Source: an uncultured archaeon
GTDB lineage: Archaea; Iainarchaeota; Iainarchaeia; Iainarchaeales; DATDZZ01
Assembly: GCA_964373795.1 (NCBI GenBank)
Contig: CAYJVY010000006.1
Location: 68,325-100,324, forward strand
Length of the DNA stretch: 32,000 bases
Direction: 5' to 3'
Program-made: the position numbers and the translations under genes
Shown here: in pieces, positions 7,704 to 30,917 of the stretch
How the letters are laid out: every line of letters starts with the position of its first letter
Position numbering within the stretch: the first letter of the stretch is position 1
The notes under the pieces: model-generated
The model's input: the letters and a program-made list of their open reading frames with translations, nothing else
Databases searched by the model: none
What the model was told of the DNA's origin: nothing

Positions 7704-8345
7704 CTATAAAAGTTTTTCTTTTAATTCTTGAATTGCTTTTTTTCTATCTGTTTGACCAAAAATTGCATTTCCGGCAACCAAAACATTTGCTCCTGCTTTC
7801 ACTACCTTTTGCACTGTATCAAGATTAATTCCGCCATCAACTTCAATATCTAAATTTGGTTTTAATTTTCGTAGTTTAGAAATTTTTGGTAAAACTGATT
7901 CAATAAATGTTTGCCCGCCAAAACCAGGGTTAACTGTCATCAATAAAACCATGTCTAATTCATCTAAAACATCTTCAATTGAATTCAAAGAGGTTGCAGG
8001 GTTTAATGCAACTGCAGCTTTTACTCCGCAAGACTTTATTTGCTGAATAACTCTATGCAAATGAGGACACGCTTCAACATGAACTGTAATAGAAGCTGCT
8101 CCTGCTTTAACAAATTCTTCAACAAATTTTTCGGGTTCAACAATCATTAAATGACAATCCAATGGTTTTGAAGATTTCAATTTTTTTACTACAGGTGGCC
8201 CAATAGTAATATTTGGAACAAACCTTCCATCCATTACATCTACATGAATTAAATCAACTTTTGATTCAACTAAAGCAATTTCTTCATTAATTTTTCCAAA
8301 ATCAGCTGATAAAATGCTTGGAGCAATTAAAACTTTTTTATTCAT
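7704..8345 (-). CDS. rpe: Ribulose-phosphate 3-epimerase
   Basis: The 213-aa product contains PSILSADF, HVDVMDG.FVPN, MTVNPGFGGQ and VDGGI motifs. Confidence 0.92.
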   Translation of the reverse strand: MNKKVLIAPSILSADFGKINEEIALVESKVDLIHVDVMDGRFVPNITIGPPVVKKLKSSKPLDCHLMIVEPEKFVEEFVKAGAASITVHVEACPHLHRVIQQIKSCGVKAAVALNPATSLNSIEDVLDELDMVLLMTVNPGFGGQTFIESVLPKISKLRKLKPNLDIEVDGGINLDTVQKVVKAGANVLVAGNAIFGQTDRKKAIQELKEKLL

Positions 8346-8926
8346 TTAAATGGTCCTCCAGGAATTAAAAAAAATATAATTAAATTTGCAATAATAATTC
8401 CAAGAATTTCAGCAACAATTAAAAGTATTATAGGCAATAAAGTTTTAAAATGAAATATAATGTTCAAAAATTCAAGCAAAACAAAATTAGCATAATACCA
8501 TGAAAAATTTAAATAATATGAGAACGGAATTGGTTTTTTTGAAAACAAACTTCCAAAATATATTAAAAAAATTGAAAAAAACACTAAAGCAATTGTTAAA
8601 AAAATAACCATTAAAGAAATATAAAAAGTTAAAAACCAAATCATTCCTAATACAAAAATTATCAAATTATTTTCAGGTTGAACATATTTGTTAAAAAAAG
8701 GAATAATTGGAAAAATAAAAATCAATGGCAAAAGGCAGGCAATTGGAATTAAAATAATTACTCCCAGAAATGAAACTGCTCTTTCAATGTCATTTTCAGG
8801 AGTAAATCCTTTATATAAATCCAAACGAGAATTAATTGAATTAAATAAATTTTGGTCAACTGAAATCAAGTTATTTTTTAATTTAATTACAAAACTCGCA
8901 TACGGTTTAAGAAAAAAATCAAACAT
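8342..8926 (-). CDS. Polytopic membrane protein of unknown function, between rpiB and rpe
   Basis: The 194-aa product has an ATG start and about 5 TM segments. Its TGA stop overlaps the rpe ATG (ATGA, 8342-8345). Confidence 0.55.
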   Translation of the reverse strand: MFDFFLKPYASFVIKLKNNLISVDQNLFNSINSRLDLYKGFTPENDIERAVSFLGVIILIPIACLLPLIFIFPIIPFFNKYVQPENNLIIFVLGMIWFLTFYISLMVIFLTIALVFFSIFLIYFGSLFSKKPIPFSYYLNFSWYYANFVLLEFLNIIFHFKTLLPIILLIVAEILGIIIANLIIFFLIPGGPFK

Positions 8927-8943: not shown

Positions 8944-9420
8944 TCAATTTGGTTTAAGAAATTGCTTTTCTATCTCTTTAATTTTATTCAATCTACGCAA
9001 ATGCCTTTCATTTTCTGGTTTGCTTCCTTCAAACTTTGTTTTTAAAAAAATTTCTACAAACTTTAATGCATCTTCTTGATTTAAAAGTTTTTCACCTAAA
9101 CATAAGACATTTGTATCTCCATGTTCTCGACATTGTTTTGCAGATGCTTCACTGAATACAACTGCTGCCCTTATGCCTGGAACCTTATTTGCTGTTAAAG
9201 CCATTCCCATTCCAGTTCCACAAACTAAAATTCCTTGAGAATTAGGATTTTTTACAACATTTTGTGCAACGCTTAAAGCAAAATCAGGGTAATCACAACT
9301 TTCTTCAGAATTAGTGCCAATGTCAGTGAATTTAAAGCCCAGTTCTTTTAATTTTTCTTTAATTGCTTTCTTTAATTTAAACCCAGCATGATCTGATCCA
9401 ATAAAAATTTTCAAACACAT
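8944..9420 (-). CDS. rpiB: Ribose-5-phosphate isomerase B (RpiB/LacAB family)
   Basis: The 158-aa product has IGSDHAGFKLK at the N-terminus and the VCGTGMGM catalytic Cys loop. Confidence 0.9.
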   Translation of the reverse strand: MCLKIFIGSDHAGFKLKKAIKEKLKELGFKFTDIGTNSEESCDYPDFALSVAQNVVKNPNSQGILVCGTGMGMALTANKVPGIRAAVVFSEASAKQCREHGDTNVLCLGEKLLNQEDALKFVEIFLKTKFEGSKPENERHLRRLNKIKEIEKQFLKPN

Positions 9421-10502: not shown

Positions 10503-10730
10503 TTATAAGAGTTTCAGAAAATTTTCTCGTTTCATTTGCAAATCGTGTTTTACTATTTTATTCAAAAGGCTTCTATCAATGTCTTCTCCACCATGATTTG
10601 GGATTACAGTTGTTCTACCATCTGGATGTTCAAAAAACATATGACTTCCTTGTTGTCTTTTCAATTCAAATCCAAGTCGCTTTAGAATTTTCGCCAATTC
10701 AAGAGCATTCATTAGCGGAAGCTTTGACAT
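10503..10730 (-). CDS. hicA: HicA-family mRNA interferase toxin
   Basis: The 75-aa product contains ELAKILKRLGFELKRQQGSHMFFEHPDGRTTVIPNHGGEDI, the classic HicA dsRBD-like signature with conserved GSH. Confidence 0.88.
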   Translation of the reverse strand: MSKLPLMNALELAKILKRLGFELKRQQGSHMFFEHPDGRTTVIPNHGGEDIDRSLLNKIVKHDLQMKRENFLKLL

Positions 10731-10731
10731 T

Positions 10732-10941
10732 TCAAACCTCTATTTGTTGCAAACTCAAAAATTTAGTCTCAAAATTATCTAGATTTTTAACTGCAAGATA
10801 AATAGAAATTGCTTCTTTTGTTCTCTTAATTAGTTCATCATAACTTTTTGCCTGAGTATGACAACCAGGCAAACCTATTACCTCTGAAATTAAATATCCA
10901 TCTTCTCCTTGCTCAACAATTACATTAAATTTTCTTGTCAT
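10732..10941 (-). CDS. hicB: HicB-like antitoxin (UPF0150, short form without a DNA-binding domain)
   Basis: The 69-aa product reads FNVIVEQGEDGYLISEVIGLPGCHTQAKSYDELIKRTKEAI, matching the HicB N-terminal fold signature. Its stop is 1 nt from the hicA ATG. Confidence 0.82.
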   Translation of the reverse strand: MTRKFNVIVEQGEDGYLISEVIGLPGCHTQAKSYDELIKRTKEAISIYLAVKNLDNFETKFLSLQQIEV

Positions 10942-10979: not shown

Positions 10980-11030
10980 TTTATTTCAACAAATTTTTAA
11001 TTTGAGTTGAGAGATTTTCTGCAGTGAAAC
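10980..11030. repeat. Right copy of the perfect 51-bp direct repeat
   Basis: It is identical to 10443-10493. It encodes the authentic 3' end of the transketolase C-terminal subunit (..FTAENLSTQIKNLLK*). Confidence 0.95.
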
Positions 11031-11943
11031 CGTATTTTGTATATAACTCTAATGGCTTGCCTGATTCTCCAAAACGATTTTGCATTCCAATTCTCTTAAA
11101 AGGAATTGAACAAGAATTTTCAGCTAATACTTCACTTACAGCTGAGCCAAGCCCGCCAATTATTTGATGATCTTCTGCAGTAATTAATGCATTTGTTTCT
11201 TTTGCTGCTTTTAAAATAATTTTTTCATCAATGGGTTTAATTGAATGAATATTTATTACTCTGCAAGAAATTTTTTCTTGTTCTAAAAGTTTTGCGGCAT
11301 TTAATGCAATATAAACTAGTCCTCCAGTTGCAATAATGGTTGCATCACTTCCTTCATGTAATTGAACTCCTTTTCCAAGTTCAAATTCATAATCTGCATT
11401 GTTTACTGTAGGAGTTTTTTCTCTGTTTGTACGCAAATAACTTGCTTCTTTAAATTCTGCTAAAAATTTTGTTGCCTCGCGAGTTTCAATTCCATCGCAT
11501 GGCACTATTACATTCATGAAAGGCAGTGTTCGAAAATAAGAAATGTCTTCCAAGCATTGCGCTGTTGCTCCATCTTGTCCTGTAAGTAATCCTGCATGCG
11601 AGCCCACAAGCTTTACTGGAACTTGTGCATAGCAAACGCTTTGTCTAATTATTTCAATTGCTCGAGTTAAAAAAATTGCAAAAGTTGAAGCAAAAACTTT
11701 TTTTCCTTCAAGAGTTAAACCAACAGACATTCCAACCATGTTTTGCTCGCAAATTCCTACATAGTGAAACCTGTTTGGATCAACTTCTTTTACAGTAATG
11801 CTTTTAGTGGATAAAGCTAAATCAGCATCTAAAGCAATAATGTTTTTGTCCTTTGCAGCTAATTCTTTTAAAGCTTCTCCATAAGCATCTCTTGTTGCAA
11901 TCATTTCAATTTTTTGTTCAGTCATCTGATCAACTCTATCCAT
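10981..11943 (-). CDS. tkt: Transketolase, C-terminal (pyrimidine-binding plus C-terminal domain) subunit
   Basis: The 320-aa product contains ATRDAYGEAL and a GICEQNMVGM-type pyrimidine-binding region. This is typical of archaeal split transketolase. The start could also be the ATG at 11925. Confidence 0.9.
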   Translation of the reverse strand: MDRVDQMTEQKIEMIATRDAYGEALKELAAKDKNIIALDADLALSTKSITVKEVDPNRFHYVGICEQNMVGMSVGLTLEGKKVFASTFAIFLTRAIEIIRQSVCYAQVPVKLVGSHAGLLTGQDGATAQCLEDISYFRTLPFMNVIVPCDGIETREATKFLAEFKEASYLRTNREKTPTVNNADYEFELGKGVQLHEGSDATIIATGGLVYIALNAAKLLEQEKISCRVINIHSIKPIDEKIILKAAKETNALITAEDHQIIGGLGSAVSEVLAENSCSIPFKRIGMQNRFGESGKPLELYTKYGFTAENLSTQIKNLLK

Positions 11944-12664
11944 GAATTACGTCAAAAAATATTAATTTGTTATCCCACTTACTAAAAAAGGCGTTCCAGG
12001 GAGCCAATGAAGTTTGAGTTCTTAACATGTTTCGCAATTGTGCAATAAATCTTTCAAGCTGAGTTCCTTTACTTTTATCCTCAAACTTTTTGCTTTGCAA
12101 TAAGTCTTGAACTGTTTGAACTTCTCCAAGTTGATGTAATTCAGTAATAATTATTCCAGGCAAACCCTCTTTTCCGGAATGTCCATAATGATATTTTACT
12201 ACCTCAAAAGTAATTCCAGGAAATTTTGCTTGAAGTTCTTGTTTTCGCGCTAAGAGTTCTTTTCTCAAATCCTGTGCAACTTTAATTTGATCAATGTCTC
12301 CTTGACTTGGAAGTATTTTAACAAAAAAACTTTTTCCTTCAATCTCTAATTTGAATACTCCTCTATTTCTTCTACCTTCATATCTTGAAGTAAATGGATG
12401 AGAAAGTTTTACAGTTACAAGTGAATGAAATTCATTGTTAAGCCTTATTTCTCGAGTAACCTTTTCCCCTACTTTTAACCCGCCTTCGTGTTCTTTTATT
12501 ATTTGCCATAGCTTGGGAAGAAGGCCTTTATTTCTAACTAAAAATTCTCTGAATTCTTTTGAATAAAATGCGCGCGGACGTTGAGCAACTTTTTTTCTTA
12601 TGCTAGAAGGTTTTCTAGGTAAACGCTTTTCAGCCGATTTTCTGTTTCTTTGATTTATGCGCAT
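11936..12664 (-). CDS. Hypothetical protein inserted between the two transketolase subunit genes; Arg-rich N-terminus
   Basis: The ORF is open to TTG 12676. The first ATG is at 12664, preceded by GGTGA with 5-nt spacing, 5 nt downstream of the tkt-N TGA. Its TAG stop at 11936-11938 overlaps the first ATG of the tkt-C ORF. I recognise no family with confidence; see the findings for a weak kinase-like pattern. Confidence 0.6.
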   Translation of the reverse strand: MRINQRNRKSAEKRLPRKPSSIRKKVAQRPRAFYSKEFREFLVRNKGLLPKLWQIIKEHEGGLKVGEKVTREIRLNNEFHSLVTVKLSHPFTSRYEGRRNRGVFKLEIEGKSFFVKILPSQGDIDQIKVAQDLRKELLARKQELQAKFPGITFEVVKYHYGHSGKEGLPGIIITELHQLGEVQTVQDLLQSKKFEDKSKGTQLERFIAQLRNMLRTQTSLAPWNAFFSKWDNKLIFFDVIHG

Positions 12665-12669
12665 TAATC

Positions 12670-13533
12670 TCACCAAGTTCCGTCAACTAGTTTTTCGTTT
12701 AGTTCGCGAATAGCTTGCTCTAATTGTTCTTGAGTTGGAGCCTTGCCGTGAAAAGAAGGATTATTGTTAATAAATGAAACCCCCTTGCCTTTCACTGTAT
12801 TACAAATTATTGCAAAAGGTTTGTCTGAAGAATCTGCTTCATTTAATGCTTGAATTATTTCTTCAACTTTATGGCCGTTAACTACTCTTACATTCCAATT
12901 AAAGGCTTCAAATTTTTTGTCTAAGGGATCTACGCTTAAAATTTCGTTTACAAATCCATCGTTTTGAATTCCGTTTTTATCGATTACTGCAACCAAGTTA
13001 TGTAATTTTTTGAATCCAGCAAAAGCAGCTGTTTCCCATATAATTCCTTCTTGGGTTTCTCCATCGCCTAGCCATGCAAAAACTTTGTGTTTTTTTTCAT
13101 CAAGTTTTGCAGCTAAAGCCATTCCACATGCAACTGAAAATCCTTGTCCTAGGCTTCCAGAAGACATTTCAACTCCAGGGGTTTTCAATCTATCTGGATG
13201 GCCTTGAAGCATTCCTCCAAGTGCGCGGAGTTTTTCTAATTCTAAGTCAGGAATTATTTTTAATTTATTTAATGCTGCATAAACAATTGGGCAAGCATGT
13301 CCTTTACTCATTACAAATCTGTCCCGAGAAGGATCATGTAAATCATTTAAATTGAAATGCATTTTGTAAAAATACAAAGCAGTAATTATTTCCGCGCTTG
13401 AAAGGCTTCCACCTGGATGCCCTGAATTAGCTTTAGTAATCATTTTCAAAGCAGAAATTCTTAAGTCTCGAGCAATTTCTCTTAATTCTTGAATTTTGTC
13501 TTTTGAAAGTGTTTTCTGCATTTCCGTCGCCAC
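12670..13533 (-). CDS. tkt: Transketolase, N-terminal (thiamine diphosphate-binding) subunit
   Basis: The product has SGHPGGSLS and the GDGETQEG ThDP/Mg motif. The track ORF starts at GTG 13533, 3 nt after the tal stop. The first ATG is at 13521. Confidence 0.9.
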   Translation of the reverse strand: MATEMQKTLSKDKIQELREIARDLRISALKMITKANSGHPGGSLSSAEIITALYFYKMHFNLNDLHDPSRDRFVMSKGHACPIVYAALNKLKIIPDLELEKLRALGGMLQGHPDRLKTPGVEMSSGSLGQGFSVACGMALAAKLDEKKHKVFAWLGDGETQEGIIWETAAFAGFKKLHNLVAVIDKNGIQNDGFVNEILSVDPLDKKFEAFNWNVRVVNGHKVEEIIQALNEADSSDKPFAIICNTVKGKGVSFINNNPSFHGKAPTQEQLEQAIRELNEKLVDGTW

Positions 13534-13536
13534 AAA

Positions 13537-14190
13537 TTATACTTTTAATCCAGCTTTTTTTGCATCATCTAAAAACTTTTTCAAGCCATTGTCAGTTAAA
13601 GGGTGTTGAAACATTTTTTCTAATACATTGAAAGGCATTGTACAATACTCTGCTCCAAGCCTTGCAGATTCAACTACATGCCTTGGATGTCTAATGCTTG
13701 CAACTAAAATTTTTGTTTGAATGTAGGAATATTTTTCAAATATTTCTTTAATCTCTTTAATTAAATTCATTCCATCTTCAGAAATATCGTCTAAGCGGCC
13801 AATGAATGGTGAAACAAATTCTGCTCCAGCTTTTGCAGCAATTAATGCTTGATTTGAAGAAAAAATTAAAGTGCAATTAATTTTAATTCCTTCAGAGGAA
13901 AGAGTTTTAATTGCTTTAACCCCTTCTGGAATAAATGGAACTTTTACTACAATGTTTTTATGCAGTGCTGCAAGAATTCTTGCTTCTTTTAAAATCTCGT
14001 TATACTCTGTTGCCAAAACCTCTGCTGAAATTGGGCCATCAACTAGTTTAGTTATTTCTTTAACTCTTTGCTTGAAGTCAACTCCTTCTTTTGCAATTAG
14101 GGATGGATTAGTTGTAATGCCGTCACATAAACCCCATTCAACTGCTTGTTTGATTTCATTTAAATTAGCTGTGTCTAAAAAAAATTTCAT
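13537..14190 (-). CDS. tal: Transaldolase, short TalC/fructose-6-phosphate aldolase family
   Basis: The 217-aa product has MKFFLDTAN, GITTNPSL, VVKVP (Schiff-base Lys) and SPFIGR motifs. Confidence 0.9.
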   Translation of the reverse strand: MKFFLDTANLNEIKQAVEWGLCDGITTNPSLIAKEGVDFKQRVKEITKLVDGPISAEVLATEYNEILKEARILAALHKNIVVKVPFIPEGVKAIKTLSSEGIKINCTLIFSSNQALIAAKAGAEFVSPFIGRLDDISEDGMNLIKEIKEIFEKYSYIQTKILVASIRHPRHVVESARLGAEYCTMPFNVLEKMFQHPLTDNGLKKFLDDAKKAGLKV

Positions 14191-14249: not shown

Positions 14250-14537
14250 TTAAGCTACTTTTTTGGAAAATTTTTTCAAAGCCTCTATTGAAGCTCTTTT
14301 AACTGCGTCAGGCTCGTTTGCTCTAATAAGTCCTTGAAGGAATGGAACAAAAACAGGATTTCTTGAATTGCCTGCTTGACTTACTAGTGAAACTTTTTCA
14401 GGCAGTGAACGGCTTTCACCAAATCTTTTAATTAACAGTTCAGAGTTAACAGCTGCTGTTGGTAAAACTCGTTGTTTTAAAGGAGTTCTTCTTCGCTCCA
14501 AAGAAATAATGCTTGCAGGCCTACGCGGTTTCAACAT
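14250..14537 (-). CDS. Hypothetical small protein with an Arg-rich N-terminus and one HEAT-like repeat
   Basis: ATG is at 14537; the track start at 14540 is TTG. The product begins MLKPRRPASIISLERRRTPLKQR. The C-terminal PFLQGLIRANEPDAVKRASIEALKKF resembles a HEAT/PBS-lyase repeat. Confidence 0.5.
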   Translation of the reverse strand: MLKPRRPASIISLERRRTPLKQRVLPTAAVNSELLIKRFGESRSLPEKVSLVSQAGNSRNPVFVPFLQGLIRANEPDAVKRASIEALKKFSKKVA

Positions 14538-14594
14538 CAATCACATTAAAATTGTTGTTAAAGTATTATAAAAAGCTTTTGCAACAAAAGAGCC

Positions 14595-15837: not shown

Positions 15838-16410
15838 ATGAATTTAATTTCTTTTTTTGAATTAGTTGGAAAACTAAAAGAATTCAAAAGAGCTGGCTGG
15901 ATTTATAAAAAAGTTTCAAATCCTGAAAGCATTGCAGATCACATGTACAGAGTAGCATTAATGACTTATGTTTTAGCTCCTCAATTTAAATTAAATCAAA
16001 GCAAATGCATTAAAATGGCTTTAGTTCATGATTTGTGTGAAGCAATTCATGGCGATATAGCAGACCCTCAAAATGGAGATATGTATTTTAATGGTAAAAA
16101 AATCTCACGTGAAGAAAAAAGCAAGTTAGAAGAAGACTCACTTGAACAAATAACTTCTTTTCTTAATCCAAAAATGAAAAAAGAAATAATTAAAATGTTC
16201 CTCGAAACTGAAAAAAAAGAAACTGAAGAGGGAAAATTTGTTAAACAATTAGATAGACTGGATTTGGCTTTTCAATTACTTGAATATGAATGCAAGCGTT
16301 CAACTGAAAACTTTGATGAATTCTGGGAAGACTGTGAAAGCAAAATTTATTGGCCTAAATTAAAAAAAATTTTAAATGAGTTGAAAAAGAAGCGAGTAAA
16401 GTTTTCATAA
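15838..16410 (+). CDS. HD-domain phosphohydrolase, YfbR/HDDC2-like 5'-deoxynucleotidase
   Basis: The 190-aa product has RAGW, ESIADHMYRVALM and HDLCEAIHGDI (H...HD...D metal ligands). Confidence 0.75.
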   Translation: MNLISFFELVGKLKEFKRAGWIYKKVSNPESIADHMYRVALMTYVLAPQFKLNQSKCIKMALVHDLCEAIHGDIADPQNGDMYFNGKKISREEKSKLEEDSLEQITSFLNPKMKKEIIKMFLETEKKETEEGKFVKQLDRLDLAFQLLEYECKRSTENFDEFWEDCESKIYWPKLKKILNELKKKRVKFS

Positions 16411-17049
16411 TAGAATTGATTTTTTTCCATAAACTAGTTCATGAAGTCGTTTATATTCATCTAACTCAGGTTTACCATATCCTACTTCAAAAAAAATTTT
16501 AAACCCTAAATCCATTAAGTCTTTTAATGCTGCTTGTTTGGTTAGTTCACTTAAACCTTTTGCATCTAAAAATTGTCTTATTTTATGCGTAGAACCAAAA
16601 ACATCTCCATTAATAAATAAAAACAATGCATCATGTTCTTCTCTTTCAATAGGAACATCTGTTTTTGCTTGCATCTTTTTGAACAACTCTGTTTGCCTAT
16701 TCCAAACATCTGTTCTTTTATTAGGACTTAATCCTTGGAAATCCTCTGTAAATTCCCCTTTTTTAGTTATTCTTCTCTCTTTTTCAGGTAATCTTTCTTC
16801 AAGATTTAAAGTCTGACCAAAAATTTTTTCATGCAACCTAACAAAGGTTTTACGAAGCTCTTGAGCTTCAGCACTATCATGCGGAATAGATGAAATTTTT
16901 TCAATAAGGGCATCGTGTTCTCTTAACAAAACATCTCTTTCTCGTTCAGGCAAAGCACTAAAAGTATGACTATATACTATTGCCCTTGATTTAGGAGCTG
17001 TAACTATAGGTCGCTTTCCACGACGACCAGTTGTCCTTCTTTCAATCAT
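16405..17049 (-). CDS. Hypothetical protein with an Arg-rich N-terminus, downstream of the methyltransferase gene
   Basis: The track ORF starts at GTG 17058; the first ATG is at 17049 (MIERRTTGRRGKRPIV...). It is co-directional with the MTase gene and 54-63 nt downstream of it. Its 3' end overlaps the HD gene stop by 6 nt. I recognise no family. Confidence 0.55.
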   Translation of the reverse strand: MIERRTTGRRGKRPIVTAPKSRAIVYSHTFSALPERERDVLLREHDALIEKISSIPHDSAEAQELRKTFVRLHEKIFGQTLNLEERLPEKERRITKKGEFTEDFQGLSPNKRTDVWNRQTELFKKMQAKTDVPIEREEHDALFLFINGDVFGSTHKIRQFLDAKGLSELTKQAALKDLMDLGFKIFFEVGYGKPELDEYKRLHELVYGKKSILL

Positions 17050-17112
17050 TTTTGTCACAATTTAATATTGATATAAATTAGTTTAGGAATTCAAAAATAT
17101 AAATCTTTGCAC

Positions 17113-18502: not shown

Positions 18503-19798
18503 TCATTTCGGCTTTAAATGACCCCATTTTTCTAGTGCTTGAGCTAATTCTTTGTGTTGTTTTGCTGCTTCTTCTAAGGTTTTTCCTTCAAGAGTTGCAT
18601 TTATTGCTTGCATTGAAGCCACTGCACCACTTAAAGTGCCTTTTGGATGTCCATGAATTCCTCCAGAAACAAGAATTACGCAGTCATTGCCAAAAATTTT
18701 CATTACATCTGGAACTAATCCGGGATGTAACCCTCCGGATGAAACAGGAAAAGCAGGTTTAATGTTTTGCCAGTCTTGTTTTAAAACTCCTTCACTTTCT
18801 TTTACTTGTTTTTCACGCAAAGTATTAGCTATTTCTATAACTTCGTGCTTTGATCCAACTAGTTTTCCTACAGCTGTTCCTGCATGAATTTGGTCAACTC
18901 CAATTAAGCGATTAATTTTTGCTAAAAACTGCATTGAAATTCCGTGTTTTGGATTGCGATCAAAGGATGCATGCATTGCTCTATGAGCATGAATAGCCAT
19001 TCCCATGTCTCCAAGTTCATTGCGCAAAGTTTGCACTGCAGCAGCTCCAACTACAACTACGTCAATCATTGCATATCTCCATCCATGTTCATGCAAAAAT
19101 TTTGCTCGCTTAATCATTTCCTTTGTTTCAGCAGTAATATTTAGAAGCGCGTCTTTTTGTTCGCCAGTAATTTTTTCAGCTTTGTCTCTAAGCTTTGTCA
19201 TTAATTTCACGCGTTCAAAAAAATTATTAAATGAAGTAGAGGAAAGATTTTCATCGTCTTTCACTAAATCAAATCCTCCCATCCAGGTTTGAAAACCAAT
19301 TTCTGCATGTTCTTTTGCAGAAAAACCAATTTTTGGTTTTGGAACAGCTCCTGTTAGAGGACGTTTTTGAACTTTGAATAATTTTCTTAGTCCTTGAATT
19401 CCTTGTCTAGGACCTTTAAAAGAATTCACATATTCTTTTGGAAAACATGCATCAATTAATTTCAAATTTTTCAATGCTTTCATTCCAAAAATATTGCCTG
19501 CAATTCCTGAAAGCATTTGAGGCATGTTTCCTTTTTCCCATAAACCAAGTGGATAAGCAATTTTCACTAAATTTCCGCGAACTTCAAAAGCAGTTGCCAT
19601 TAAGCCTTTCATTCTAGGAGGCAATTTGAATAAAGTAGTCCAAGTTCCAGTTGAACTCTCTGAAGCAATTCTTCCAATTGCTTCATTTCTGGAAATTCCT
19701 GCAGCTGGTTCAAAATAATATAAAACAATTACATCGCTTTTAGTTGGAGAGTAATGCAAGTTAATGAATTCATCATACCAATCAATTTTTTTAGTCAT
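18503..19798 (-). CDS. rbcL: Ribulose-1,5-bisphosphate carboxylase/oxygenase large subunit, archaeal form III type
   Basis: The 431-aa product has GGFDLVKDDENL (carbamylated Lys in KDDE), GIAGNIFGMK, IHAHRAMHA, VSSGGLHPG and SGGIHGHP. No small-subunit gene is nearby. The N-terminus YDEFINLHYSPTKSDVIVLYYFEP is typical of form III. Confidence 0.92.
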   Translation of the reverse strand: MTKKIDWYDEFINLHYSPTKSDVIVLYYFEPAAGISRNEAIGRIASESSTGTWTTLFKLPPRMKGLMATAFEVRGNLVKIAYPLGLWEKGNMPQMLSGIAGNIFGMKALKNLKLIDACFPKEYVNSFKGPRQGIQGLRKLFKVQKRPLTGAVPKPKIGFSAKEHAEIGFQTWMGGFDLVKDDENLSSTSFNNFFERVKLMTKLRDKAEKITGEQKDALLNITAETKEMIKRAKFLHEHGWRYAMIDVVVVGAAAVQTLRNELGDMGMAIHAHRAMHASFDRNPKHGISMQFLAKINRLIGVDQIHAGTAVGKLVGSKHEVIEIANTLREKQVKESEGVLKQDWQNIKPAFPVSSGGLHPGLVPDVMKIFGNDCVILVSGGIHGHPKGTLSGAVASMQAINATLEGKTLEEAAKQHKELAQALEKWGHLKPK

Positions 19799-24596: not shown

Positions 24597-25469
24597 TCAA
24601 AGAGCTTTTGTTTTCACAAATTCGTTATACAAAACTATATGATAATAGATTTGAATTACAGTGAAAAAAACTGATGGCAAAACCAGTGAAGGAATAGCAA
24701 AAAGGAAAAACAATTCATAAGAATTAAGTAAAATAAGAAAAATTGCTCCTAAAACTAGTCCTGCAAACCAGAATGTCGCTGTAATAATTAGAATTGGAAG
24801 TTCATATACCAAAAGGAAGGCAAGCAATTTCCAAAACCTGTGATGAGTTAATTCAAATCCTTCTTTCAAAGCAACAAGAATTGAAATATCTTTTTGCACA
24901 AAAATAATCCAAGCAAAAACCATTCTAATAAGGTTATAAGTATACATTGCAAAAAAATAAATTACTGTAATAAGTCCTACAATCAAGGGCACTACAACTA
25001 GAATTGGGTTAACTAAAACAAGTAATAGGCTTAAAAGAGTTAAAACAATTAACACAATTAATGGAATTAATAATTTTAAATTTAAAATTGAGAAAAACGA
25101 GAACACAACATAAGCAATAAATAAGATTACAAGCTTAATGAATTTCATTAAATCAAATTTGGCATGCTTTAATCCAAGAAATTTGAATGCATTAAATGCA
25201 ACGTTTACTGCTAAAAAAGTCAATACAAGTGAAAGAATTAATCCTAAAACTAATTCAATTAATTTTAAAATTAATTGAGTAAAATCTTTTGGCGCCAACA
25301 TAAAATTTTTCAGAGAACCATAAATTAAAAGAATTACAACAAAGTAAATCAAGAAATAAATAAAATAACTAATTAAATATGCTGCAAAAAACTTGAATGT
25401 ATTTAAATCATTCCACCAAAAAGTTAAAGGTGTTAAAAAAAGTTTAAAGTAATCTGTTTTATGCTGCAT
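24597..25469 (-). CDS. Polytopic membrane protein, unknown function
   Basis: The product has about 6-7 hydrophobic helices. The track ORF starts at TTG 25484; the first ATG is at 25469. It lies directly upstream of the SPFH gene on the same strand. Confidence 0.55.
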   Translation of the reverse strand: MQHKTDYFKLFLTPLTFWWNDLNTFKFFAAYLISYFIYFLIYFVVILLIYGSLKNFMLAPKDFTQLILKLIELVLGLILSLVLTFLAVNVAFNAFKFLGLKHAKFDLMKFIKLVILFIAYVVFSFFSILNLKLLIPLIVLIVLTLLSLLLVLVNPILVVVPLIVGLITVIYFFAMYTYNLIRMVFAWIIFVQKDISILVALKEGFELTHHRFWKLLAFLLVYELPILIITATFWFAGLVLGAIFLILLNSYELFFLFAIPSLVLPSVFFTVIQIYYHIVLYNEFVKTKAL

Positions 25470-25490
25470 TAAAATATTTTTCAATGAATT

Positions 25491-25532: not shown

Positions 25533-26123
25533 ATGGAAATATTGATTTGCGGCTTGTCCGGAAGCGGGAAAAGTGGAGTAGCAGAAATAGTGGCAAAAAA
25601 ACTAAACTTAAGACTAATTCATACCTCGGGAATTTTAAGACAGTTATTTGAAAAAAAAATTGAAGAAATCAATGTAGAAAAAGGTTTGAAGAATAAAGGT
25701 TTTTGGGAATCAAATGAAGGAAAAAAATTAAACCAGCAAAGACTTGAAGGGATTTCAAAAAAAGGAAAAACAGTTGACGAGCTATTGGATGAAAAATTAT
25801 TAATAGAAATTGGGAAAGGAAATGTTGTAATGGATTCTTGGACAATGCCTTGGTTATCCAAGAAAGGATTAAAGATTTGGTTGAAAACATCTAATAAAGT
25901 TAGAGGAAAAAGGCTTGCAAAAAGAGATAATTTAAGTGAAAAAGAAGTAATGAAAAGAGTTAAAGAAAAAGAAAAACAGGTTTCAAAAATTTATAAAAAA
26001 CTTTATGGATTTAATTTTGGAAAAGACTTGAAAGTATTTGATTTAATTATTGATGTAGATCTGTTAACTGTTGAAGAAACAGCTGACAAAATAATTGAGT
26101 TTGTAAATGCAATCGACGATTAA
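25533..26123 (+). CDS. cmk: Cytidylate (CMP) kinase, archaeal type
   Basis: The 196-aa product has the P-loop GLSGSGKS. The GNVVMDSW...LKIWLK...R.KRLAKRD...YKKLYGFN...FDLIIDV pattern matches archaeal Cmk layout. A related P-loop NMP kinase is an alternative. Confidence 0.65.
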   Translation: MEILICGLSGSGKSGVAEIVAKKLNLRLIHTSGILRQLFEKKIEEINVEKGLKNKGFWESNEGKKLNQQRLEGISKKGKTVDELLDEKLLIEIGKGNVVMDSWTMPWLSKKGLKIWLKTSNKVRGKRLAKRDNLSEKEVMKRVKEKEKQVSKIYKKLYGFNFGKDLKVFDLIIDVDLLTVEETADKIIEFVNAIDD

Positions 26124-26132
26124 AAAATAGTT

Positions 26133-26345
26133 TTAAGGTTGTTTTGAAGCTAGTTCAATGTCTTCATCAGTGATTGTTTTTCTTTTAGCGTGTAAGGCAA
26201 AGATTTTAGCTTTTTTGGAAATTTCTTGGCCGTGAAATTCTAATTTGTTTCTTAAAACATCTGCTGCTTTTTCACTTACTCTCATGCTTGGATCAATTGA
26301 TTTAATTAATCTTATAACTGCAGCTAAAGGTAATTCATTAGACAT
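26133..26345 (-). CDS. Archaeal histone (HMf-like histone fold)
   Basis: The 70-aa product reads LPLAAVIRLIK...RVSEKAADVLRNKLEFHGQEISKKAKIFALHAKRKTITDEDIELA, matching the canonical archaeal histone pattern. Confidence 0.85.
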   Translation of the reverse strand: MSNELPLAAVIRLIKSIDPSMRVSEKAADVLRNKLEFHGQEISKKAKIFALHAKRKTITDEDIELASKQP

Positions 26346-26495
26346 TTAAACCACTTTAAACCTTAATTAAAGCATTAAAGGCAAAAAACTATTTAAATAT
26401 AATCTTTTTCATTGAAAAAGCTTTAAATTTGAATTAATTTTCAACGGAAATCTGCTTTAAAAACTATTTTAAAAGCATAATTGAGTATTACTTTA

Positions 26496-28826
26496 ATGAA
26501 TATGCTTGAAGTGAATTCAATTCAGTTTGAAGAGAAATTTGTTTCTCATCCTTTAATTAAGTCAAACATTGTTGAAAGAAGGCTTTATCAAGAAATTCTT
26601 GCAGCAAGAGTAGTTGAAAATGGTAATTCATTAGTTGTTGCTCCAACTGCTTTAGGTAAAACAATTATTGCTGTGTTAGTTGCTGCTTTTATTCTTGAAA
26701 AAAATCCTGAAAGCAAGTTAGTGTTTCTTTCTCCTACAAAGCCTTTGGCTCAACAACATGAACAGTCTTTGAAAAAAATTTTGAATTTAGGGGAAGAAAA
26801 AATTGCTTTGCTTACTGGAACTGTAATGACTCAGGAAAGAAAAGAGTTATGGGAAAAATCAATGGTTATTTCTGCTACTCCTCAAACAATTGAAAACTCT
26901 ATTTTAAGAGGTGAAATTGATTTTGAAAAGGTTTCATTGCTTGTATTTGATGAATCTCATAGAGCTGTAGGAGATTATTCTTATGTTTATCTTGCAAGAA
27001 GATATATGAAGCAAGCAAAAAATCCTTTAATTTTAGCTTTAACTGCGTCTCCTGGATCGCAAGAAGAAAGAATTCAAGAGGTTTGCAAAAACTTGTTCAT
27101 TAAAAACATCGAAATTAAAACAGTAAAAGATTTTGATGTAAAAGAATACGTTAACGAAATAGAGGTTGACTGGAAATTTATTTCCTTGCCTTCAGAATTT
27201 ATTGAAATAAAAAATTTATTAGATTCATTCATTAAAGAACAAATTCAGTTTTTCAGAAAAATAGGTTATTCAAGGCATTTAGATTTCTCATACATTAGGA
27301 GAAATGAATTGCTTGCCTTGCAAGCCTTGCTTAGAAAAGACATGATTGAAAAAGGAAGAGAAAATCCATCTCTTTACGTAGCGGTTTCAAAAATTGCTTC
27401 CTTGCTGAAAATTCTTCACGCGCGAACCTTGCTTGAAACACAGGGATTAAATGCATTAAATGAATATTTTAAAAGACTGAAATTAGATGCAAGTCAAATT
27501 AATTCATCTAAAGCAGTGAAATCGATAATAAAAAATGAAGAAATTTATGAAGCAATTCAGAAAACAGAAAAATTAATTCAACAAAATATTTTGCATCCAA
27601 AATTGATTGAATTAAAGCAAATCTTGCTACAACAATTCAAGTCAAATCCTGAGTCAAAAGTATTAGTATTCAATCACTATAGAGACTCAATTTCAGGTTT
27701 AATTGAATTCTTGAATCAGTTTCCAGAAATAAAGGCTCAAAAATTTATTGGACAAGCTTCAAAGGATTCAGGCAAGGGAATGAGTCAAAAAGAACAATTA
27801 GAAGTAATTCAAGACTTGAAAAAAGGAATCTTCAATGTCTTGTGTTGTTCAAGTGTTGCAGAAGAAGGATTAGATATTCCTTCAGTTGACTTGGTTATAT
27901 TCTTTGAGCCGGTTCCAAGCGAGATAAGATTAATTCAAAGAATGGGTAGAACTGGAAGAATTGCAAAAGGAAAAGTAATAATTTTAATTGCAAAAAATAC
28001 TTCAGATGAAGGAATTTATTGGGCAAGCATTGCAAAAGAAAAAAAAATGCATTCCACTTTAAAGGAAATGAAAAAAAATTCAAGCAATTATCAAACAACT
28101 ATTTCAAATGCAAATGCATTGCCAAAGCAAAGCACTTTAATTCACTTTCATGAAAACCAAAAAGTATTAATTTATGTTGACACTCGCGAACAAAACTCTT
28201 CCCTTATTGGTTTACTGGAAGAAAAAGATGCAATAATAAAAGTAAAACAGATTGAAGTAGGAGACTATGTTTTATCAGATCAAATAGTTGTTGAAAGAAA
28301 AACATTAGAGGATTTCTTGAATTCAATTATTGATGGCAGATTGTTTAATCAATTAAATAAAATGAATGAAAACTATGATTCTCCCTTGATTTTAGTTGAA
28401 GGCAACCAAGAAGAATTATTTTCTTTGCGAAACATTCACCGCAATGCAATAATTGGAGCATTAACTTCTATTGCATTAAATTACAGGATTCCAATTCTTT
28501 TCACTAAAAATTCTGCTGAAACTGCGGAATATTTATTTCTCACTGCAAAACGCGAACAACTAGGAAAAGGCTCTGATATTCGTTTACGTGTTGGAAGAAA
28601 AGGTTTAACTCTTTCCGAGCAACAAAGATTTTTAGTTGAAGGCTTGCCAATGGTTGGCCCTCAAATGGCTCGCTCGCTCTTAAATCATTTTGGTTCAATT
28701 AAAGCAATTGCAAACGCGGATCAAAAAGAATTACAAGAAATTGAAAACCTTGGAGAAAAAAAAGCCAGAGCAATAAAAAACGTTTTACAAAAAAAATTCT
28801 CCGAAGAAGAGAATAACAAAATTTAA
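26496..28826 (+). CDS. hef: Hef: SF2 helicase fused to an XPF/ERCC4 nuclease and an HhH2 domain
   Basis: The product has helicase motifs APTALGKT and DESH. The ERCC4 region reads IYVDTREQ...VGDYVL...VERKTLEDFLNSIIDGRLFNQ. A helix-hairpin-helix tail sits at the C-terminus. The track ORF starts at TTG 26481; ATG 26496 is more likely. Confidence 0.9.
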   Translation: MNMLEVNSIQFEEKFVSHPLIKSNIVERRLYQEILAARVVENGNSLVVAPTALGKTIIAVLVAAFILEKNPESKLVFLSPTKPLAQQHEQSLKKILNLGEEKIALLTGTVMTQERKELWEKSMVISATPQTIENSILRGEIDFEKVSLLVFDESHRAVGDYSYVYLARRYMKQAKNPLILALTASPGSQEERIQEVCKNLFIKNIEIKTVKDFDVKEYVNEIEVDWKFISLPSEFIEIKNLLDSFIKEQIQFFRKIGYSRHLDFSYIRRNELLALQALLRKDMIEKGRENPSLYVAVSKIASLLKILHARTLLETQGLNALNEYFKRLKLDASQINSSKAVKSIIKNEEIYEAIQKTEKLIQQNILHPKLIELKQILLQQFKSNPESKVLVFNHYRDSISGLIEFLNQFPEIKAQKFIGQASKDSGKGMSQKEQLEVIQDLKKGIFNVLCCSSVAEEGLDIPSVDLVIFFEPVPSEIRLIQRMGRTGRIAKGKVIILIAKNTSDEGIYWASIAKEKKMHSTLKEMKKNSSNYQTTISNANALPKQSTLIHFHENQKVLIYVDTREQNSSLIGLLEEKDAIIKVKQIEVGDYVLSDQIVVERKTLEDFLNSIIDGRLFNQLNKMNENYDSPLILVEGNQEELFSLRNIHRNAIIGALTSIALNYRIPILFTKNSAETAEYLFLTAKREQLGKGSDIRLRVGRKGLTLSEQQRFLVEGLPMVGPQMARSLLNHFGSIKAIANADQKELQEIENLGEKKARAIKNVLQKKFSEEENNKI

Positions 28827-29516: not shown

Positions 29517-30917
29517 TTAGTCAAAGCTGTATTGAATTATTTTTCCTCCATTGCTTGAAAAAATGCTTGATACTCCTGGACAGTTTTTTGCTTCCAAGAT
29601 TCCTGTTTGAAATTTCAAAGAATTTAATGCGCCTTTGTGAATGAAAAAATAATTTGCATTAAATTTCTTAACGTTTTTTTCAATTCTCTTACAATTACTT
29701 GACTCAATTAATTCCTTCATTACTTGATTTCGCTCTTCTAATTCTGGCGCAAATTCAAAATACCCATCAATTACTTGTTTTCGTTGAGTTAAATAAGCTA
29801 AAGGATGCCCTTGATCCCATTGAGAAAAAATATTTTCATCAGAGGAAGAATTATTCTTAAGCCATTCAATTGCCTTTTTTTGGGAAACAGGAACTAATTG
29901 TTCAAAAGAATCAAGTAAAGGAATTAGCGAGACCAGTGCAAGAACTAATAATAAAACAAAAAAAATGCCAGTATAAGGTCGAATTTTTTCTAATGCAAAG
30001 TTTAATCCAAAACCTGCAATAATTGCTGCAGGAATTGATAAGAAAATTCCTAAACGCAAAGCAAAAACCCCAAATAAAAGTGAAACCACAAACCAGAGTT
30101 TCAAAAACAGGTTTTCTTTGAGCTTGAATAACCCGATTAAAATGAAAATCCAGCTAAAAGTAAAAAAAGTAAAAAAATGAATAAACAATAATTTAGATGC
30201 TTCACTTGATTCAAATGAAACAAAAGAAAAATAATCAGTTAAAGGATACGGCAAACTTGAAAGCCATAAAATCCAAGTAACTACAATTAATAAAATTGTG
30301 AACAAAATTTTTTTAAAATCCAATTCAAGCTTTTTAATTTTAAAAACTATTAACCATGCAAGCAAAAATAGCACTAAATATGAAGCGGAAAGCGGATGCA
30401 ATAATGTTTGCGCAATTGAAAGCAAGTAAGCTATGCGAAATTTTTTTAAATAAAGCAAGAAAATAATTGCAGGAACAATAAGCAAACTTAAACCATCAGG
30501 GCGAGCAGAAGAAAAAGTTCTAATAATGTGGAATAAAGTTATAGCCAAAATAAAGGCTGAAAGAAAAGCAATTTTTTCTCCAAAAATTCTTCGAGTGAAA
30601 ACAAAAACTAGCAATATTCCTAGTACTCCATAAATATTTGGAAGAAAATTAATTAAGACAATTATTGGAATATTGCTTGCAATGAAAAGTACTGCAAAAA
30701 GAATGTGAAACAAAGGAGGATAAGAGTAAAACCTGCCTTGCAAACTTAATTCATCAAATTTAGGCAAAGAATGTTCTTGAACTGTTTGCTCGCTTAATCT
30801 TGCATGAAAATAATTATCTGGATCAACTAAAGAATTATTCAGCATTGGATAAAATCTTAAAATAAATCCAAGAGAAAGAATTAACAGCAAGCCTGCTATG
30901 AAAAATTTTAAATTCAT
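29517..30917 (-). CDS. GT-C fold membrane glycosyltransferase, possibly a very short AglB/STT3-type oligosaccharyltransferase
   Basis: The 466-aa product has about 11-13 TM helices. The first external loop reads DPDNYFHARL (DxD-type motif). After the TM block, SQWDQGHPLAY sits where STT3/AglB has WWDYG. The soluble C-terminal domain is short, about 90 aa. An ArnT/PMT-like GT39/83 enzyme is the alternative. Confidence 0.5.
   Translation of the reverse strand: MNLKFFIAGLLLILSLGFILRFYPMLNNSLVDPDNYFHARLSEQTVQEHSLPKFDELSLQGRFYSYPPLFHILFAVLFIASNIPIIVLINFLPNIYGVLGILLVFVFTRRIFGEKIAFLSAFILAITLFHIIRTFSSARPDGLSLLIVPAIIFLLYLKKFRIAYLLSIAQTLLHPLSASYLVLFLLAWLIVFKIKKLELDFKKILFTILLIVVTWILWLSSLPYPLTDYFSFVSFESSEASKLLFIHFFTFFTFSWIFILIGLFKLKENLFLKLWFVVSLLFGVFALRLGIFLSIPAAIIAGFGLNFALEKIRPYTGIFFVLLLVLALVSLIPLLDSFEQLVPVSQKKAIEWLKNNSSSDENIFSQWDQGHPLAYLTQRKQVIDGYFEFAPELEERNQVMKELIESSNCKRIEKNVKKFNANYFFIHKGALNSLKFQTGILEAKNCPGVSSIFSSNGGKIIQYSFD

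Follow-up and report, generated by a model that had tools for sequence, protein, structure and literature searches.

The element studied here, ORFX, is an open reading frame (ORF) wedged between the genes for the two halves of a split transketolase in a 32,000-nucleotide (nt) stretch of DNA from an uncultured archaeon of the Iainarchaeota (assembly GCA_964373795.1, contig CAYJVY010000006.1, positions 68,325 to 100,324; hereafter the window). An earlier reading made without database searches (the sequence-only reading) had noted the spacing of protein kinase motifs in ORFX and had suggested that its product could be a truncated, pseudokinase-like protein that regulates or scaffolds transketolase. 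Our analysis supports the kinase-like and truncated parts of this interpretation and speaks against a conserved link with transketolase. ORFX belongs to a small archaeal protein family whose predicted kinase-like fold ends where the larger part of a kinase C-lobe would begin.

The ORF calls and Pfam matches give the order tal, tkt-N, ORFX, tkt-C on the minus strand (Table 1), with the four genes packed and joined as had been described. The stop codon of tkt-N (TGA, 12672-12670) is followed by 5 nt (GATTA) and then by the ATG of ORFX (12664-12662). The motif GGTGA, read from the sequence 5 nt upstream of this ATG and kept in the closest relative (locus L037), could serve as the ribosome-binding site of ORFX. 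Two other in-frame starts exist, GTG at 12673 (245 amino acids [aa]; public gene call P0001) and TTG at 12676 (246 aa). We favor the ATG because it is the only one in frame in L037, where it is the sole in-frame start and lies 4 nt past the tkt-N stop. All residue numbers refer to the resulting 242-aa form; the sequence-only reading used the 246-aa form, and its numbers are higher by 4. At the other end, the TAG of ORFX sits within ATGGATAG, so that ORFX and tkt-C, counted from its first ATG (11943), overlap by 8 nt.

ORFX has the same G+C content as its neighboring genes (genome, 30%). A bacterial-type scan found no terminator-like site on the coding strand inside the block from tal to tkt-C, and promoter-like sites in the block were fewer than expected from shuffled sequences, in a scan that is also of the bacterial type and inapplicable to archaeal promoters. 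ORFX is very probably co-transcribed with its neighbors, and its position likely provides both co-transcription and coupled translation with the two transketolase subunits. Directly upstream of tal, a 96-aa ORF with an Arg/Pro-rich N terminus and no Pfam match could be either the opening gene of the operon or spurious. Downstream of tkt-C, the same strand carries a HicA toxin gene and a HicB-like antitoxin gene.

TABLE 1 Features of ORFX and of the window (positions in the 32,000-nt stretch)
Feature	Position	Strand	Remarks
tal (transaldolase/FSA family)	13537-14190	minus	TAL_FSA, 4e-62; first gene of the packed block
tkt-N (transketolase subunit, thiamine-diphosphate-binding domain)	12670-13533	minus	Transketolase_N, 2.7e-53; directly upstream of ORFX
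GGTGA, Shine-Dalgarno-like	12670-12674	minus	Covers the final Trp codon and stop codon (TGA) of tkt-N
ORFX coding sequence, 242 aa	11936-12664	minus	ATG at 12664; stop TAG at 11938-11936
Residues 1-31, Arg/Lys-rich tail	12572-12664	minus	13 of 31 residues basic
Residues 32-60, conserved N-terminal extension	12485-12571	minus	Short strand and two helices
Residues 68-176, kinase-like N-lobe	12137-12463	minus	From family alignment, AlphaFold2, Foldseek, and hhalign
K116 (K120 in the 246-aa numbering)	12317-12319	minus	Codon AAA; equivalent of the β3 "VAIK" Lys; invariant in the family
Residues 177-242, rudimentary C-lobe	11939-12136	minus	Ends after VIHG
S219	12008-12010	minus	Codon TCA; catalytic-Asp site of kinases, 5 residues ahead of N224
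N224 (N228 in the 246-aa numbering)	11993-11995	minus	Codon AAC; equivalent of the catalytic-loop Asn
D238 (D242 in the 246-aa numbering)	11951-11953	minus	Codon GAC; equivalent of the DFG Asp; invariant in all members
tkt-C (pyrimidine-binding and C-terminal domains)	10981-11943	minus	Transket_pyr, 2.1e-39; Transketolase_C, 1.5e-33
96-aa ORF	14250-14540	minus	
HicB-like antitoxin	10732-10941	minus	
HicA toxin	10503-10730	minus	
rpiB	8944-9420	minus	
194-aa ORF	8342-8926	minus	Between rpiB and rpe
rpe	7704-8345	minus	
RuBisCO large subunit	18503-19798	minus	
cmk-like	25533-26123		
Histone	26133-26345	minus	
Hef	26481-28826		
466-aa ORF	29517-30917	minus	No Pfam match
295-aa ORF	24597-25484	minus	No Pfam match
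217-aa ORF	16405-17058	minus	No Pfam match
266-aa ORF	754-1554	minus	No Pfam match

Homologues and conservation

ORFX has no significant match in Pfam, NCBIfam, or the PDB sequences, and a word-indexed search of 5.8 billion protein clusters with ORFX as the single query returned only ORFX itself. When 1.84 billion cluster representatives were scanned exhaustively with HMMER, 12 proteins were retrieved at E<1e-3, and profile searches of the 5.8 billion clusters added about 12 further members, which brings the family to about 25. Family proteins are 220 to 253 aa long, and the full-length HMMER matches align end to end. The best homologue, P0002 (243 aa), is 46% identical to ORFX by the HMMER scan and 45% identical over 226 aligned codons; the remaining HMMER matches are mostly 23 to 30% identical and 220 to 240 aa long, and P0003 is a 128-aa fragment with 39% identity. 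An organism name is attached to two members only, P0002 (MDO8627731.1) and P0023 (MBI2530232.1), in both cases "Candidatus Diapherotrites archaeon." No member has a Pfam domain on record, the labels being "hypothetical protein" or none, and the last profile search, read up to an E-value of 10, returned no distant relatives annotated as kinases. The family loci that could be read bear archaeal markers (histone, TFIIB, Hef, LSM, aIF5A, and Spt5), and the window has its own (Hef, Cgi121, and an archaeal histone). Judged from these sequences, the family is so far seen only in archaeal (DPANN-type) loci and was not annotated before; our literature search found no description of such a family, which is a weak negative.

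The conservation pattern singles out a small set of residues. The alignments of 19 and of 20 sequences share the invariant positions F38, F113, F114, K116, H159, N224, and D238. When four more divergent members are included, no replacement is seen at K116, at D238, or at the Phe residues next to them, and N224 is replaced, by Asp, solely in the outlier P0024. D238 lies 14 positions after N224 in an (L/F)FD motif, and in every member except P0024 the chain ends 0 to 10 residues past this Asp. Because all members but one stop within 10 residues of D238, truncation is the normal state of the family and not a sign of decay; the lack of an activation segment and a C-lobe, which the sequence-only reading had pointed out for ORFX, is real and a family trait. 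The exception, P0024 (300 aa), alone carries some 60 additional residues at its C terminus, behind the DFG-like Asp, and might connect the family to longer kinase-like relatives.

Other positions vary. At the position of the catalytic Asp, 13 of the 19 aligned members have Asp or Glu, ORFX has Ser, as noticed before, and P0002 has His. Between the first two core strands the family has a consensus resembling a Gly-rich loop, TGSYKG, which reads TSRYEG in ORFX, the first Gly being gone. The clade of ORFX is marked by two insertions and by the absence of the catalytic Asp. Three loci contain two family paralogues each, in tandem in L040 (76-861 and 1052-1771) and L042 (1106-1795 and 1818-2504) and about 1 kb apart in L038 (431-1150 and 2175-2945); within the L038/L040 group, one copy has Gly or Asn at the site of the catalytic Asp and the other has Asp. 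Neither a second copy nor a remnant of ORFX was found in the window, including the gap between cmk and Hef.

Between the window and L037, the tkt-N proteins are 84.5% identical and the ORFX proteins 45%. The Nei-Gojobori dN/dS ratio of ORFX versus P0002 is about 0.44 and that of tkt-N in the same genome pair is 0.04, both values being rough since dS is saturated; the nonsynonymous rate of ORFX is about 5 times that of tkt-N. ORFX is a genuine gene, fast-evolving yet constrained. The possibility that it is an unconserved, spurious, or decaying insert, which had been raised with the original interpretation, is excluded by about 25 full-length homologues and by a dN/dS ratio below 1.

Predicted fold

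All motifs noted earlier were found in ORFX, namely, GKSFFVK116, the hinge-like I171-IITEL176, the loop S219-LAPWN224, and LIFFD238-VIHG-stop, as was the Arg/Lys-rich N terminus. AlphaFold2 (AF2) run on the single sequence gave a model with a predicted local distance difference test score (pLDDT) of 65.5, whose Foldseek matches were noise without kinases. With the 19-sequence family alignment, the pLDDT rose to 84.6 (82 to 85 for the five models) and the predicted template modeling score was 0.77. In this model, disorder is predicted solely for residues 7 to 28 of the basic tail, which have a pLDDT below 50; such a tail, variable in sequence, is present in every family member. The N-terminal extension, with the family motif [AV]YSxEF(K/R)xF that includes F38, forms a strand (32-34) and two helices (36-44 and 48-58), and canonical kinases have no counterpart to it. 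An extra strand, β0 (68-74), comes before the other segments of the kinase-like lobes. These are β1 (82-88), the degenerate Gly-rich loop TSRYEG, which has a low pLDDT, β2 (102-108), β3 with FFVK116 (111-118), αC (125-147, as helices 125-139 and 141-147), β4 with H159 (152-162), β5 (170-175) running into the hinge-like IIITEL (to residue 176), αD (185-189), αE (194-214), the loop from S219 to N224, β7 (225-228), β8 (233-236), and FFD238. The order from residue 82 onward is that of canonical kinases (β1, G-loop, β2, β3, αC, β4, β5, hinge, αD, αE, catalytic loop, β7, β8, DFG), and the model contains the five antiparallel strands of the N-lobe, helix αC, and the hinge. Four residues follow D238 before the protein ends, with no activation segment and no helices αF to αI.

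Structure searches with this model returned kinases. The best 50 Foldseek matches in the PDB are all protein kinases or pseudokinases, with probabilities of 0.8 to 1.0 (mostly >0.9), and include ROP5 (4e-4), DRAK1, GAK, ASK1, PknG, PKA, ILK, PRPK/Bud32, and ChaK; the best target-normalized template modeling score (TM-score) in the list is that of PRPK/Bud32 (7sza, 0.37). In an independent library, BFVD, the top matches are mostly Ser/Thr kinases (best, 1.7e-4). We also aligned the family profile with PKA, CDK2, and PRPK by hhalign, which provides a lead and not a test; the alignment is weak (P=0.004, probability 8%) and in register. It places TGSYKG on GTGSFG of PKA, the hinge (xVTDF in the family, IIITEL in ORFX) on MVMEY, and S219, N224, and D238 on PKA D166, N171, and D184, respectively. 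The assignment of the K, S, N, and D residues made in the sequence-only reading is very probably correct.

None of the kinase-type Pfam families Pkinase (PF00069), RIO1 (PF01163), Kdo/Bud32-type (PF06293), APH (PF01636), and ABC1 (PF03109) matched ORFX at its curated threshold, and the sole kinase-family match among the 19 members was one of ABC1 to a single member at E=0.12. By these profile comparisons the family lies outside all curated kinase families and would be a new family of kinase-like proteins. A profile search of the PDB gave weak matches to L28 (0.003), Rpo7, and YfiA/HPF (0.06 to 0.2) and none to a kinase. We rejected a reading as an HPF-like β-α-β-β-β-α fold; these matches are not significant and span 60 to 80 residues, and the fold is absent from the Foldseek lists. 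Defense, phage, and toxin functions were considered because the HicAB pair adjoins tkt-C, and were rejected on the negative outcome of PADLOC (none of the 19 members matched) and PHROGs (only scattered single matches at E>0.01).

Several observations weigh against a kinase-like nucleotide binder. No kinase-family model is significant for ORFX in Pfam, NCBIfam, or the PDB profile search, the hhalign probability against kinases is as low as stated above, and the Foldseek TM-scores are low (0.27 to 0.42) with high root mean square deviations. The family alignment shows no conserved αC Glu, as helix 125-147 carries no conserved acidic residue; H159 is lost in P0021-P0024, and the catalytic-Asp position is nonacidic in 6 of the 19 members, also outside the ORFX clade. 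Moreover, the saturation of dS makes the dN/dS ratio rough, and the gene neighborhoods described below are heterogeneous, with L030-32, L040, L041 (where CutA1 follows X, the family member), and L042 lacking a metabolic link. Low TM-scores are to be expected because 40% of the target domain has no counterpart in ORFX and the query has an additional N-terminal module; they make the result an assignment to a fold class and not a close match. The assignment rests, in these models, on consistent matches at E-values of about 1e-3 to 1e-4 and not on close superposition.

A rival proposal is that ORFX is not kinase-like at all, either because too few aligned sequences misled AF2 and Foldseek or because the ORF is spurious or a decaying insertion. 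The alignment indeed holds only 19 sequences, the single-sequence model is poor, the TM-scores are low, and no kinase family is matched by sequence. Nevertheless, two independent structure libraries give almost exclusively kinases, the invariant residues fall on the K, N, and D residues of kinases with canonical spacing and secondary structure, and the second half of the proposal is excluded by the homologues and their dN/dS ratio. We therefore regard it as highly improbable. On the whole evidence we consider it fairly probable that ORFX is a genuine, very probably co-transcribed gene of a small family with a protein-kinase-like (PKL) fold, that its product is likely an Mg-nucleotide binder, and that the ORFX clade is probably weakly catalytic or noncatalytic. 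The reality of the gene, the conserved family, the predicted fold class, the truncation, and the gene neighborhoods are what the data show; nucleotide binding and the lack of catalysis are inferred.

Gene neighborhoods

The order tktN-X-tktC, where X is the family member, recurs in the closest relative, L037 ("Candidatus Diapherotrites," GCA_030650135.1; X is P0002). There, X begins 4 nt after the tkt-N stop, and tkt-C begins 37 nt after X. Outside the window this synteny was found in L037 only; about 10 other loci have different neighbors. The expectation that homologues would show a conserved linkage to tkt did not hold, and the proposal of a transketolase regulator or scaffold is weakened because the tkt neighborhood is not kept across the family. 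Of the GTDB loci retrieved with tkt-C, 23 contain both halves of transketolase, and in 22 of these the halves are adjacent with nothing between them, consistent with the earlier statement that split transketolase genes are normally neighbors. The sole exception is a metagenome-assembled genome of the Methanocaldococcaceae (L013, 152-2757), in which the gene rpe for ribulose-phosphate 3-epimerase (237 aa, 1062-1775) lies between tkt-N and tkt-C. As in the window, a gene associated with the pentose pathway is wedged between the two halves on the same strand; the wedged gene in L013, however, is that of a well-known enzyme, whereas in the window it is the unannotated kinase-like ORFX, and rpe lies elsewhere.

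Could the split transketolase nevertheless have in ORFX a third subunit or a regulator of its own, with a pseudokinase serving as scaffold or sensor and binding TktN and TktC? Two genomes show the arrangement tktN-X-tktC with almost no spacing, their X proteins being just 45% identical, and the clade-specific loss of the catalytic Asp together with two insertions would fit a shift away from catalysis. However, the link is found in only 2 of about 12 independent loci, 22 of the 23 GTDB loci with both halves have no insert, and a nonsynonymous rate about 5 times that of tkt-N is unusual for an obligate subunit. We consider such a subunit improbable; any link of ORFX to transketolase activity is one that we infer.

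In other lineages X follows other genes. In L029 and L034-36, the gene immediately before X encodes an archaeal (d)CMP kinase (TIGR02173, above the cutoff), the gaps being 3 and 1 nt, and in L029 a RuBisCO gene stands just beyond cmk, within 1 kb of X (order RuBisCO, cmk, X). In L033, an e2b2-like gene of the eIF-2B family, resembling ribose 1,5-bisphosphate (R15P) isomerase genes, ends 1 nt before X, and carA comes after X. X is immediately preceded by a TIM-barrel gene of the AP_endonuc_2 family in L043 (4-nt overlap) and L044, and in L038/39 such a gene adjoins X on the opposite strand; these genes are nfo-like by NCBIfam in L043 and L038, and the fragment in L044 has a Pfam match only. In the window, rpe, rpiB, and the RuBisCO large-subunit gene are located at most 7 kb from ORFX. 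Judged by these loci, the family-wide theme appears to be a loose association with sugar-phosphate and nucleotide enzymes and not with transketolase specifically. No partner gene able to supply the missing C-lobe recurs next to family members in the loci examined.

These neighbors bear on another explanation, that the proteins are minimal yet active kinases whose substrates are small molecules of pentose-phosphate or nucleoside metabolism, for example, making or using ribose phosphates for R15P isomerase, RuBisCO, and the nonoxidative pentose phosphate pathway, and that ORFX is still an enzyme with a noncanonical base. Tight coupling behind an e2b2-like gene (L033), cmk (L029 and L034), and tkt-N (the window and L037), RuBisCO genes within 1 kb (L029) or 6 kb (the window), the invariance of K, N, and D as would-be ligands of metal and nucleotide, and the absence of a protein-substrate lobe all agree with this idea. 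A precedent is methylthioribose kinase MtnK, a PKL-fold enzyme that pairs in an operon with the eIF-2B-family isomerase MtnA. The AMP/R15P-RuBisCO pathway (deoA, e2b2, and RuBisCO) is documented in DPANN archaea, including Diapherotrites, which have form III-b RuBisCO (PMC6389311); neither deoA nor e2b2 was seen in the 32,000-nt window. On the other side, ORFX has Ser and P0002 His at the catalytic-Asp position, which is nonacidic in 6 of the 19 members, no APH or ChoK profile matches, and several loci have no metabolic neighbor. To our knowledge, the known PKL small-molecule kinases (APH, ChoK, and MtnK) all keep the catalytic Asp of HxDxxxxN. We rate an active small-molecule kinase as unlikely.

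Some neighbors point elsewhere. Genes of RNA metabolism and translation lie near X in several loci, with RtcB and archease in L038 and L040, LSM and aIF5A in L030, S10 and EF-1a in L038 and L040, and FtsY in L042 (order FtsY, X1, X2). The family could thus consist of RNA- or ribosome-associated atypical kinase-fold ATPases of the RIO/Bud32 type, with the basic tail binding RNA and the metabolic neighbors being incidental. Every member has a Lys/Arg-rich disordered N-terminal tail, PRPK/Bud32 is among the Foldseek matches with the best target-normalized TM-score, and the weak profile matches to L28 and YfiA/HPF are to ribosome-related proteins. These matches are not significant and span just 60 to 80 residues, however, and no Pfam model of RIO1, Kdo, or Bud32 matches. 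Translation genes make up a large share of small DPANN genomes, and chance neighbors are to be expected, whereas the tight downstream coupling is with metabolic and not with RNA-related genes. In our judgment an RNA-associated ATPase is quite unlikely.

How might X have come to lie between the tkt genes? L034 (3638-8443) has the order cmk, X, a KaiC-like gene, a histone gene on the minus strand, and Hef. The window has the counterparts of cmk, histone, and Hef, with no X or remnant between them. Because this synteny is shared with L034 and X is absent from it in the window, we hypothesize that ORFX was relocated into the tkt operon in the lineage of the window.

RuBisCO, rpe, rpiB, and the tal-tkt block form a compact pentose-phosphate and nucleotide-salvage neighborhood in the window. 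ORFX is not the only unannotated gene wedged into this gene set. The 194-aa ORF between rpiB and rpe is a second one; its product is very hydrophobic and resembles a multipass membrane protein, it overlaps the start of rpe by 4 nt, and it has no match in Pfam, NCBIfam, or the PDB sequences. Four larger ORFs elsewhere in the window also have no Pfam match (Table 1). Sizeable ORFs without Pfam domains are typical of the dark-matter gene content of DPANN archaea.

Discussion

The family of ORFX is predicted to have a minimal PKL fold that stops right after the Mg-binding Asp. In the modeled architecture, a disordered basic tail and a two-helix extension precede a kinase N-lobe and the first third of a C-lobe, with αD, αE, the catalytic loop, and the Mg-binding Asp. 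Between the lobes, K116, N224, and D238 would line a cleft that binds an Mg-nucleotide. As the activation segment and the substrate-binding C-lobe are absent, the most likely role of the family is not that of a classical protein kinase but that of a protein acting on a small ligand, an ATPase, or a nucleotide sensor. The clade of ORFX and P0002 probably comprises weakly catalytic or noncatalytic, pseudokinase-like nucleotide binders; it is likely to be a poor catalyst because the catalytic Asp is lost (Ser or His), and ORFX has lost the first Gly of the G-loop as well. In the lineage of the window, the gene would have been inserted between tkt-N and tkt-C and be translated in step with both, and in other lineages it sits behind genes for CMP kinase, R15P isomerase-like proteins, or nfo-like TIM-barrel proteins.

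ORFX is probably a distant relative within the PKL superfamily, closest in spirit to Bud32/PRPK, a member of the KEOPS complex, and the RIO proteins, which among archaeal kinase-fold proteins are the smallest to have been studied in depth. These are mainly ATPases or switches and not classical protein kinases. Like the family described here, they are small (about 200 to 260 aa) and have an N-lobe with the β3 Lys, a catalytic loop of the D-x4-N type, and a metal-binding Asp about 13 residues further on, and they lack an activation loop and a protein-substrate lobe. Bud32 and RIO proteins keep about 50 or more residues after the DFG motif, including αF-like helices, whereas the ORFX family ends 0 to 10 residues past the Asp. 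Unlike them, the family has an N-terminal two-helix extension and a basic tail, has no conserved αC Glu, and does not have an invariant catalytic Asp, which is Ser in ORFX. No Pfam, NCBIfam, or PDB sequence match of ORFX to Bud32 or RIO was found.

The best structural matches are eukaryotic-type kinases and pseudokinases (PKA, ASK1, ROP5, and ILK), which share the order of elements from β1 to the DFG Asp and the register of the motifs (G-loop, Lys, hinge, catalytic loop, and DFG). With pseudokinases, ORFX also shares the lack of the catalytic Asp. The family differs from eukaryotic-type kinases in comprising roughly the first 60% of the domain, without an activation segment, APE motif, or helices αF to αI, in an identity of 10 to 18%, and in the absence of a Pkinase HMM match. 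Small-molecule kinases of the APH, choline kinase, and MtnK type (PF01636) resemble the family in having a PKL fold encoded beside metabolic genes, as for the member located behind the e2b2-like gene (L033). However, the family does not match PF01636 and has neither their large helical C-lobe nor the strict Asp of HxDxxxxN.

There are also precedents for pared-down or divided kinase folds. HopBF1 is a minimal bacterial kinase with a pared-down fold. In the HipBST system (PMC9325769), HipS and HipT represent a split HipA, with the kinase fold divided between polypeptides. The ORFX family differs from both in that we found no sequence or profile relationship with them and no toxin-antitoxin or defense signature in the family.

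More speculatively, and with a small chance of being right in our own estimate, the family could be the smallest known self-sufficient kinase-fold module, in which the N-terminal helical extension replaces the αF-centered C-lobe. It could then act in DPANN sugar-phosphate and nucleotide salvage, either as a new small-molecule kinase or ATPase that feeds the R15P-RuBisCO and pentose-phosphate module or, in the ORFX clade, as a nucleotide-sensing pseudokinase that has become a third, regulatory subunit of the split transketolase.

If the prediction holds, the family would offer a naturally occurring kinase fold whose chain stops just behind the DFG Asp, and it would put to the test the textbook notion that a kinase domain needs an αF-centered C-lobe to be stable and to bind nucleotide. 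Annotation would gain from a definition of the family, which is absent from Pfam, NCBIfam, PADLOC, and PHROGs. As to transketolase, the message is more modest, namely, that the split enzyme tolerates a foreign gene between the genes for its subunits. For the biology of the DPANN archaea, a conserved and sometimes duplicated gene located repeatedly beside sugar-phosphate and nucleotide enzymes in tiny genomes is a concrete candidate for filling a gap in salvage metabolism, at either a regulatory or an enzymatic step.

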